From: Escherichia coli O127:H6 str. E2348/69
Lineage (GTDB): Bacteria; Pseudomonadota; Gammaproteobacteria; Enterobacterales; Enterobacteriaceae
Direction: 5' to 3' (one strand)
Assembly (NCBI RefSeq): GCF_000026545.1
Contig: NC_011603.1
Length of the DNA: 64,000 nucleotides
Shown: positions 6,001 to 9,000 of the stretch, piece after piece
How the letters are laid out: each line of letters opens with the position of its first letter
How positions within the stretch are numbered: the stretch's first letter is position 1
Position numbers: made by a program

Positions 6001-9000
6001 CCGGAGACGCGGAGTCCGGGAATTTTCCCTGTCACCCTCAGTCGCTCGCCGTCTGCCACCGGCATTTTTTCCGGCCGGAACAGCGACCAGCTGCTGTCCA
6101 GGGAGGAAATACGCACCACCTGCGTTTCACCCTGCGCATCCCGCAGGGTCAGGCTGTTACTCTGCGCCGTCACCCGGTCGATAACATAGCGGTCATGACT
6201 GCGTGTCTCCGGGTTCCACTGCTCCATCACCATCCCCGGACGGTACATATCCCGCAGATAACGGCTCCGGCTGTCCAGCCAGACCGGCGACAGGGCGGTC
6301 ATGGTTACCTCCGGGCGTCCGAGCACGCCCTGTGTTTTCAGCTCACTGCGAATGGCCTGTGTCAGTATGGCCTGTTCCCGTACCCCGCTGACCTGTGCCA
6401 CGCTCTCTTCTCCGGCTTTCACGCTGGCAGCAAAATCTCCTGCCAGCCGGGCATAGCGGACATTACGGTCCGGTTCACTGATGATGGTGGCCGGCCGCTG
6501 TTCTCCCCCCTGCCAGCGATATGTGTTCACCCCGGCATCTTTCATGGCCATCAGTGCACTGCCTGTACCGGTTCGCTGCCCGCTGTCGGTTATCAGGACC
6601 TGTACGTTATGACGTGCGGCACCGTCCAGCAGGGTTAACGTCTCTTTCAGGGAGAGTTTTTCGCCCTGGTCAACGATAACAGTATTGCCCGGCGTGAAGG
6701 CCATGCCCTCCTGCAGCTGACGACGTCCGGTTATCAGCTCACCGGACAGCCGTTCATCCTGCTTCAGGTTCATCTGCGAGCGACGGTCAGCGGCGATAAT
6801 CTGCACCTCCCGCCCCTGCTCCCGGGCCATCATGACCAGCTCCGCCACCCGCTCACGCTGCCCGGCTGCACCGCCCTGCCCGGACACAATAGCCAGCGAC
6901 GGGCGATCCTGTGCCAGAACACTGACCGCATCGCTGTAACCGGCCGTCCGGGGGACACTTTTCTCCGGATGTACGGTCACCCGGTTCTGTTTCATGATGT
7001 CACGACTGAGTGCCCGGACTGACAGCTCATCGAGCACATGAATCCCGGACGTGAACAGCCCCTTCTCACGATCGAGGGGGATAAGCTGCTCACGGCTGAT
7101 GGCCTCATCGATACCGGCGCGTGCCCGTTCAATCACACCATTTTCCGGCGGCAGTATGCCGACCGTTCTGGCCAGCACGTCCGTGTACGTAAACTGCACT
7201 TTGCGTTCACTTAATCCGGCAATGGCCTGTGTCACCGCCTGCTGCACATCCGGCCCGTCCTGTGAAGCGGGTCCGGGCGTCTGCGTGCGGGTCTCCGCCC
7301 GTTGGTCCGCCGCGTCACGATACGCCCGGATGTCGAACCCGGTTTCCTTCAGCGTCTGCATCCATTCAGCCATTCTGACTTCAGGATCGACGTGCTGTTT
7401 GGATTTTCGCGTATCCAGTGCCGCCACATCCCGGGATTTCAGCGAGGCGTCTTCCCCGACGGCCTCCCGGATAGCCTGTGAGCGTCCGGAGAAGGCCTCC
7501 ACCGGTACGCCCGGCATCTCCCACATACCGTGCTTACCAACCACTTCCGTTTCATAGCCCAGCGCCTCAACCTGCTCTTTCAGTTTTTCCCGGTAGAGCC
7601 TGCCGAAGGCAATCTGATTAGCGTACACATTCTCAATGAACCCCGTTTTCCCCACTTTGTCACTGCTCAGTGTCTTCCACTCGCCGTTATGCTGCGTGAC
7701 ATTGGCCACTACCGCATGTGTGTGTAACTGTGGTTCCTGATCGCGACTGGTGTCGTGGTTAAACAGTGCCATCACCAGATTACCGGTCAGCACCGTTTCT
7801 GACTGTCCGTCCGTCATAACCCGTGTGGAAGCCAGCGCCTCCACCTGACGGACAGCAAAATCCACGGCCTGGTTATGTGCATCAATAAGACGTTTATCAC
7901 CGCCTAACATGGCCATCACGGAGACACTTTTGGGGGCGGAGAAGGTCAGGTCGTAGCCGGGACGATGCTTATTACTGCCATCCTGCATGCGGCTTAAATC
8001 CGCTCCGTCCGGCAGCTTCCCCTCCAGAAGACGGGTAAAAACATCCTTATCGACGCTGCCCTGCAGCCCCAGCTGTTCAGCCCCCCTGCCGGCCCAGCGT
8101 TCTCCCATGCTGCCCAGCACATAGTAATTATCCTTGTCGGTATAATAGTTACCGGCACTTCCGGCCGATCTGACCTGCGCGATACTCATCATAAACGTAT
8201 ATCCCTTTGACATATCCCGGTATCAATCCCACAATGGATATACACAAGACATATCCACATAAGGAGGCAAATAATGGAAACCACCGTATTTTTCAGCAAC
8301 CGCAGCCAGGCGGTCAGACTGCCAAAAGCGGTTGCATTGCCGGAAAACGTAAAACGCGTTGAAGTGATTGCTGTCGGACGAACCAGAATCATTACGCCAG
8401 CCGGAGAGACATGGGACGAATGGTTCGACGGACACAACGTCAGCGCCGATTTTATGGATAACAGGGAACAGCCCGGCATGCAGGAAAGGGAGTCATTCTG
8501 ATGCTGAAGTTTATGCTCGATACCAACATCTGCATTTTCACGATAAAGAACAAACCCGCCAGCGTCAGGGAGCGTTTTAACCTGAACCAGGGGAGAATGT
8601 GTATCAGTTCGGTCACCCTGATGGAGCTGATATATGGTGCAGAAAAAAGCCAGATGCCTGAACGTAATCTCGCTGTGATCGAGGGATTTGTTTCCCGCAT
8701 TGATGTTCTGGATTACGACGCTGCCGCAGCCACACACAGCGGCCAGATAAGAGCAGAACTTGCCCGTCAGGGACGCCCTGTCGGGCCATTTGATCAAATG
8801 ATCGCAGGTCATGCCCGCAGTCGGGGACTGATTATTGTGACTAATAACACCCGGGAATTTGAACGTGTGGACGGTCTGAGAATTGAAGACTGGAGCTGAC
8901 CTGTTCATCAGAAATCATCTCCCGGCTCAACATCCTCCCCGCGCTCCCGATGCACATTGATGTTCACCTCTTCACGACGCTGCATCTTCTGCTGGATATC

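Follow-up and report, generated by a model that had tools for sequence, protein, structure and literature searches.

The closest described relatives of the locus considered here are the VapBC modules of enteric bacteria. Near-identical enteric proteins are reported to regulate their own transcription with conditional cooperativity, and their VapB is turned over in a Lon-dependent manner; the operators vapO1 and vapO2 of enteric vapBC overlap the -10 and -35 elements (PMC3378870). In Shigella, VapBC cleaves tRNA(fMet) and stabilizes pINV by post-segregational killing. The S. sonnei-type allele equals the S. flexneri allele in toxicity and is poorer in plasmid retention. In work on plasmid pSLT, which also examined whether vapBC2ST contributes to the stability of that plasmid, this homologue of mvpAT is stated to be 'encoded within the trbH gene' (PMC5065971). 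In a survey of annotated proteins, trbH was recorded in only 8% of MOBF12 plasmids.

The window, i.e. the whole stretch of 64,000 nucleotides that was analysed (Escherichia coli O127:H6 str. E2348/69, contig NC_011603.1), represents an EAF plasmid of the pMAR7/E2348-69 type, its coordinates corresponding to those of pMAR7 from record position 38933 onwards. The distal tra genes (traX, traI, traD, traT, traS, traG etc.) are located on the minus strand, and between traD and traI resides, in the opposite direction, a vapB-vapC pair of the mvpAT type whose two genes are intact and overlap (Table 1). This is what the original prediction had described, and the ORFs, the family scores and the overlap of the vapB stop with the vapC start in TGATG (8499-8503) bear it out; the coordinates named there, 8214-8907, correctly span the interval between traI and traD. 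VapB matches NCBIfam NF040493 with 110.6 bits (E 3e-32, cut-off 60) and the VapB chains of PDB 6SD6/3TND with an E value of 4e-46, while its match to Pfam MazE_antitoxin is marginal (24.4 bits, just below the cut-off of 24.7). VapC scores 289.1 bits (3.4e-87, cut-off 143) against NF010285, 'tRNA(fMet)-specific endonuclease VapC', contains the Pfam PIN domain (1.9e-21) and is identical to the VapC chain of PDB 6SD6 in 129/132 residues. The active-site acids D7, E42, D98 and E119 are all present in the translation and invariant in the homologue alignment. At the level of sequence, the pair combines four features of enteric VapBC type II toxin-antitoxin systems with a tRNA(fMet)-specific VapC, namely a PIN toxin with its active-site acids, a score above the family cut-off, an overlapping VapB encoded upstream, and a promoter with operators. 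Very probably, the locus is a type II toxin-antitoxin addiction module of the enteric plasmid VapBC kind (also known as MvpAT, VagCD or STBORF1/2) that occupies the place usual for it in the F lineage, and no novel insertion. Evidence contradicting the identification as vapBC was not encountered.

Table 1. Coordinates of the vapBC cassette, its edges and its tra neighbours in the window
Feature	Position	Strand	Basis or remark
traI relaxase/helicase, downstream neighbour on tra strand	2922..8192	-	
Right direct repeat copy ATGA, at traI start	8189..8192	-	alignment vs empty-site plasmid
'trbH' frame, 239-codon ORF on tra strand	8189..8908	-	antisense to vapBC, codon-aligned with vapC, covers whole traI-traD interval
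vapBC predicted promoter, operators and ribosome-binding site	8194..8267	+	sequence motifs; layout as in enteric vapBC
vapB antitoxin gene, 75 aa	8274..8501	+	AbrB/SpoVT-type N-terminal DNA-binding domain
vapC toxin gene, 132 aa	8501..8899	+	PIN-domain tRNA(fMet) endonuclease
Left direct repeat copy ATGA (within TGATGA), traD-side cassette edge	8905..8908	-	alignment vs empty-site plasmid
traD coupling protein, upstream neighbour on tra strand	8908..11061	-	

The 82-bp spacer between traI and vapB features a sigma-70-like promoter with 10/12 consensus matches (TTGACA at 8207-8212 and CACAAT at 8230-8235, separated by 17 nt), two inverted repeats across this promoter (8197-8207/8233-8243 and 8235-8241/8251-8257) and a strong Shine-Dalgarno sequence, AAGGAGG, before vapB (8261-8267). 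GGATAT/ATATCC operator half-sites are kept in all lineages compared. Judged by these motifs, the cassette appears to have a promoter of its own, and two inverted-repeat operators seem to cover its -10 and -35 boxes, in agreement with the layout of vapO1 and vapO2. By analogy with its relatives, vapBC would be transcribed from this promoter next to the traI start and would be repressed by a VapB-VapC hetero-octamer bound to the two operators. Lon would degrade VapB, free VapC would cut initiator tRNA(fMet) and halt translation, and plasmid-free cells would cease growing. The 98% identity to the Shigella proteins makes it probable that VapC of the window cleaves initiator tRNA, that VapB neutralizes it and that the pair exerts post-segregational killing.

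The original prediction had further claimed that the cassette replaces trbH of F. This part cannot be upheld, as F itself (NC_002483.1) carries the same pair at the same junction (in locus coordinates, vapC 7967..8365 and vapB 8365..8592, both on the minus strand, between traD and traI), and the 239-aa trbH ORF of F (7958..8677, plus strand) is the exact antisense frame of F vapB/vapC. The older submitter annotation of pOU7519 (EU219534.1) gives the interval as trbH on the tra strand, and RefSeq now gives it as vapB/vapC on the other strand. It follows that one piece of DNA is read as trbH on one strand and as vapBC on the other, and that nothing has been replaced. What gene catalogues and older annotations of F-like plasmids list as 'trbH' is a shadow of vapBC. 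In the window, too, a 239-codon ORF is present on the tra strand that went unnoticed in the original prediction; this ORF is 'trbH'.

The junction of the window is by no means peculiar to it. Over 1.4 kb it is 100% identical to pMAR7 and the E2348/69 plasmid, and the whole occupied junction is present in 1155 of the 4222 PLSDB records matching the flanks; the cassette alone is found in 1290 records. The junction is likewise present in 2804 of 5426 complete E. coli genomes, and in 759 of these 2804 it is occupied. By DNA comparison, the cassette occupies about 27% of matching junctions in PLSDB and in E. coli, and the figure of 8% for trbH reflects annotation practice, not DNA. Occupied junctions occur in F, in S. 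sonnei pINV, in pSLT-type plasmids and in F-like plasmids of Pantoea and Enterobacter, the TraD and TraI proteins of the latter two being 75% and 67% identical, respectively, to those of the window. The divergence of the cassette tracks that of its flanks with synonymous sites saturated (dS ~2), and such co-divergence with traD and traI shows that the association is ancient. The vapBC feature is real and already known, a textbook addiction module in its normal place. A recent insertion or replacement specific to the window plasmid was rejected, given the presence of the cassette in F, pINV, pSLT and the 1155 PLSDB records. As evidence against itself, the original prediction would have counted this arrangement being the common ancestral state in most F-like plasmids, and this holds in part. 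The arrangement is indeed old and common, being shared by F, pSLT, pINV, Pantoea and Enterobacter, but with only about 27% of matching junctions occupied it does not extend to a majority.

Comparison with plasmids lacking the cassette defines the edges of the event. In these plasmids, the arrangement is traD-TGATGATG-traI, the stop codon of traD and the start codon of traI sharing nucleotides, and the wider context reads ...GATTTCTGATGATGAGTATC... In the occupied junction, the left edge leads from ...TTCTGATGA into ACAGG and the right edge from ...CGTTTATGATGA into GTATC. When aligned with an empty-site plasmid, the cassette comprises about 716 bp and is flanked by a short ATGA/TGATGA repeat. 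In Pantoea, the traD 3' end is repeated imperfectly over 17 nt, GGAGGGTACATTTGATG / GGAGGATACATCTGATG, with 15/17 matching positions; a search for a long flanking duplication yielded only this repeat and the ATGA/TGATGA of the F lineage. Insertion with duplication and precise loss by recombination between repeats both fit the junction data.

The antisense frame is itself conspicuous. As it is codon-aligned with vapC, stops in the trbH frame can stem only from TTA, CTA or TCA codons of vapC, none of which is present in any cassette between traD and traI, and the frame is stop-free throughout in the F-like and pSLT lineages as well as in the Pantoea and Enterobacter lineages, with two loci each. 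In the window, the frame starts with an ATG overlapping the stop of traD (TGATG) and ends with a TGA overlapping the traI ATGATG; the same double overlap, with either TGATG or TAATG at the traD end, is seen in 7/7 traD-traI lineages down to 73% nucleotide identity, with frame lengths of 239-260 codons. The non-coding spacer measures 82 or 115 nt and is stop-free, the difference of 33 nt being in frame and ending exactly on the traI ATG. Antisense vapBC cassettes are located at a minimum of four positions in F-type tra regions, i.e. between traD and traI, between traF and trbB, upstream of traD and behind traX, a recurrence that may be new. After near-duplicates had been removed at 97% identity, the frame proved to be open in all seven traD-traI cassettes and in none of 55 non-tra homologues whose G+C content does not exceed 0.56; it is open in 1/4 cassettes behind traX, in 2/3 between traF and trbB, and closed in the single one upstream of traD. 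A Fisher test of the traD-traI cassettes versus the non-tra homologues gives P = 2e-9, a value that includes no phylogeny correction for what are related lineages. A traD 3' remnant still accompanies the cassettes behind traX, which are thus derived from a traD-traI ancestor.

How, then, can the openness of this frame be explained? It could well be, though we would not call it probable, that the frame has stayed open passively, through codon usage and common descent and without selective value, and that the cassette is a tolerated passenger. When synonymous codons are resampled, a lineage has an open frame by chance with a probability of 0.11-0.13 under the tra codon usage of the window and of 0.39-0.54 under that of Pantoea; the resulting range of 0.1-0.5 under tra-gene codon usage speaks for a passive origin, as do the one lineage behind traX that has remained open and an unbridged gap around artA in the same operon. 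With the codon usage of non-tra vapBC, the chance drops to 0.03-0.06. Against a passive origin speaks the complete absence of open frames among the 55 non-tra homologues of comparable G+C content. Some 3.5-5% of the single-nucleotide changes that are neutral for vapBC would create a stop, and none is seen despite saturated synonymous divergence. Furthermore, the spacer is stop-free as well, varies in length by a multiple of three and ends on the traI ATG, and stops do arise where cassettes have been moved out of the traD-traI junction, namely in three of the four lineages behind traX and in the one upstream of traD.

A tentative proposal is that trbH is neither a protein gene nor an accident but a pass-through ('bridge') frame kept open by selection. 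Ribosomes leaving traD would translate across the antisense cassette via the open trbH frame and reinitiate at traI, and they would incidentally shield the RNA from Rho. As a corollary, the frame should decay wherever a coupled downstream gene is lacking. The closed frame of the cassette upstream of traD fits this expectation, traD having no start/stop coupling to its upstream neighbour. The tra-strand RNA across the cassette is comparatively rich in C and poor in G, with C/G ratios of up to 1.5-2 in 78-nt windows versus 0.7 in traD/traI; if left untranslated, such RNA would be a Rho substrate, which is consistent with a selected pass-through. Against it stands the gap of 396 nt around the antisense artA-like ORF, which is tolerated unbridged in the same operon. 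Moreover, trbH::kan insertion mutants of F are said to have transferred normally in the hands of Maneewannakul and Ippen-Ihler in 1993. A general necessity of protection from Rho was rejected as a complete explanation on account of the unbridged artA gap and the closed cassette upstream of traD.

The view of the original prediction, taken here as a recent insertion that replaced trbH and now couples tra expression to toxin-antitoxin regulation, appears unlikely. Two routes are conceivable, convergent transcription and a roadblock formed a short way upstream of traI by operator-bound VapBC. The geometry is suitable, since transcription would be head-on and the vapBC promoter/operator DNA doubles, on the tra strand, as the region where translation of traI is initiated. 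In addition, no convincing terminator follows vapC, whose end is 8 nt away from the traD stop, such that vapBC transcripts should continue antisense into traD, and an antisense 'as-trbH' transcript is contained in a Shigella preprint, which assigns no function to it. However, no replacement has happened, the cassette of F with trbH as its antisense frame being the same; the arrangement is ancient, as is evident from the co-divergence with traD and traI; and F as well as pSLT-type and pMAR7-type plasmids are typed as conjugative with the cassette in place. The notion that the cassette supplies a promoter for traI was also dropped, as a scan of 7900-9300 yielded no promoter-like site on the tra strand.

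By far most differences from the window lie at third codon positions of vapB and vapC. Between the window and pSLT, codon positions 1/2/3 differ by 8/2/20 substitutions in vapB and 5/3/39 in vapC, and between the window and Pantoea by 20/9/36 and 19/12/66. The ratio dN/dS amounts to 0.04-0.1 for vapB and vapC and to 0.7-1.15 for the trbH frame. On this evidence, vapBC is conserved coding content under strong purifying selection, and TrbH is no conserved protein. That trbH might nevertheless be a genuine protein-coding gene overlapping vapBC on the opposite strand, so that the locus encodes three proteins, is highly improbable: in favour of it are its historical annotation as TrbH and an ATG-start ORF of 239-260 codons with a conserved position and with ends coupled to traD and traI in all traD-traI lineages, but its amino acid identity falls to 54% where VapC holds 83-84%, its dN/dS ratio gives no sign of selection on a protein, no family in Pfam or NCBIfam was matched, current RefSeq annotation omits it, and its frame is open, through codon alignment, whenever vapC avoids TTA, CTA and TCA.

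Returning to selection on the frame as a path for ribosomes from traD to traI, we found no proposal of such a bridging role for trbH in the literature searched, and a frame that is doubly coupled and stop-free yet unconstrained as a protein seems to be new. If the proposal is true, trbH would be a clear natural case in which selection keeps an antisense frame open irrespective of what it encodes and thereby preserves translational coupling across an embedded cassette.

Among known systems, VapBC/MvpAT of Shigella pINV (pMYSH6000, pWR100; PDB 3TND, 6SD6) has near-identical proteins and shares the 626-nt colinear cassette and the operator motifs. S. sonnei pINV even shows the same context as the window, its vapBC being flanked by traD and a traI remnant, and Shigella mvpAT is accordingly a relic of an F-type tra operon. 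While tra is decayed on pINV, the window plasmid retains an apparently complete tra operon. The allele of the window, with VapC Arg32 and VapB Ala58, is of the S. sonnei type, from which the S. flexneri-type allele differs. F (NC_002483.1) agrees with the window in genes, order, strands, junction sequences and the 239-codon antisense ORF, and its cassette is 96.3% identical, differing solely by point substitutions (23/626 nt). On the Salmonella virulence plasmid pSLT, vapBC2ST has the junction and geometry of the window at 12% nucleotide divergence, almost all of which is vapBC-synonymous. F-like plasmids of the R100/R1 type possess homologous traD and traI flanks but no cassette, the traD stop directly overlapping the traI start (TGATGATG). 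Within the window itself, artA (18295-18609, plus strand) resembles vapBC in that it is about as large as a gene, runs on the opposite strand and lies within the long tra transcription unit; in contrast to vapBC, it is AT-rich, does not constitute a toxin-antitoxin pair and is not spanned by a bridging ORF on the tra strand.

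Three further sites in F-type tra regions were found to hold diverged antisense vapBC cassettes (72-77% nucleotide identity), and at all of them, without exception, vapBC runs counter to tra (see table). Cassettes following traX adjoin a PLD-nuclease gene and repA and are hosted by Salmonella salamae, diarizonae and Onderstepoort and by Kosakonia, while those between traF and trbB occur in Enterobacter, Pantoea stewartii and Erwinia typographi. Four of the post-traX loci (L008, L013, L092 and L093) retain a stretch of about 30-76 nt resembling the 3' end of traD (...GAACCCGGAGGCAGCATCTGATG...), located on the tra strand directly upstream of the vapC end, and this retained sequence indicates that a traD|traI junction was the original home of these cassettes. 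The remaining two, L094 and L095, both salamae records, have an upstream flank unlike that of the other four.

Positions of vapBC cassettes and of an antisense open reading frame; L-numbers denote homologous vapBC loci in other records, with positions within each locus
Feature	Position	Strand	Site
vapBC, L006	3074-3699	opposite to tra	DUF2726 gene / traD interval, pYLMB49a
vapBC, L008 (also L092-L095, L013)	L008: 3076-3701	opposite to tra	directly after traX
vapBC, L023, L026, L059	about 3274-3899	opposite to tra	traF / trbB interval
Non-tra vapBC, L010	3274-3899		E. coli E69 chromosome
Hypothetical ORF, 104 aa	window 18295-18609	+	antisense, between traQ and trbA

Copies of vapBC also exist outside tra regions in E. 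coli, with VapC 90-91% identical to that of the window. The antisense frame is broken in these copies, L010 and L011, whose longest stop-free runs span 210 and 429 nt, respectively, of the 626. For trbH, the name given to the corresponding frame at the traD|traI junction, a prevalence of 8% among MOBF12 plasmids has been published on the basis of annotated proteins (PMC5102898), whereas DNA comparison of the same interval yields about 27%; judged by this discrepancy, the published figure is evidently an annotation artefact.

The window allele (vapC, 8501-8899; vapB, 8274-8501) carries Arg at VapC residue 32 and Ala at VapB residue 58 and is of the S. sonnei type, which has been described as equal in toxicity to the S. 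flexneri Lys32 allele and poorer in plasmid retention (bioRxiv 10.1101/2020.08.10.243006).

Over the junction, the E2348/69 plasmid NZ_CP059841.1, like pMAR7, is 100% identical to the window. From record position 38933, pMAR7 (NC_010862.1) is colinear with the window apart from ambiguous bases in the pMAR7 record and a 1-nt offset near 42.2 kb (window ~42200); the third exception, a difference of ~1.4 kb, lies at window ~46750-48150, near IS30/IS110 copies. According to the pMAR7 annotation, chromosome-like genes for a glutamine/GABA antiporter (gadC) and a glutamate racemase (murI) reside on the plasmid beside IS elements, at window ~46900-48300 or 48231-49691 depending on the treatment of a 1373-nt offset beyond window 48151.

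The 104-aa ORF between traQ and trbA lies at the position of artA in F, and no tra-strand ORF spans the surrounding 396-nt gap. Other Enterobacterales plasmids differ from the window in that, instead of this ORF at the artA position, they feature a vapBC cassette in the traF-trbB interval.
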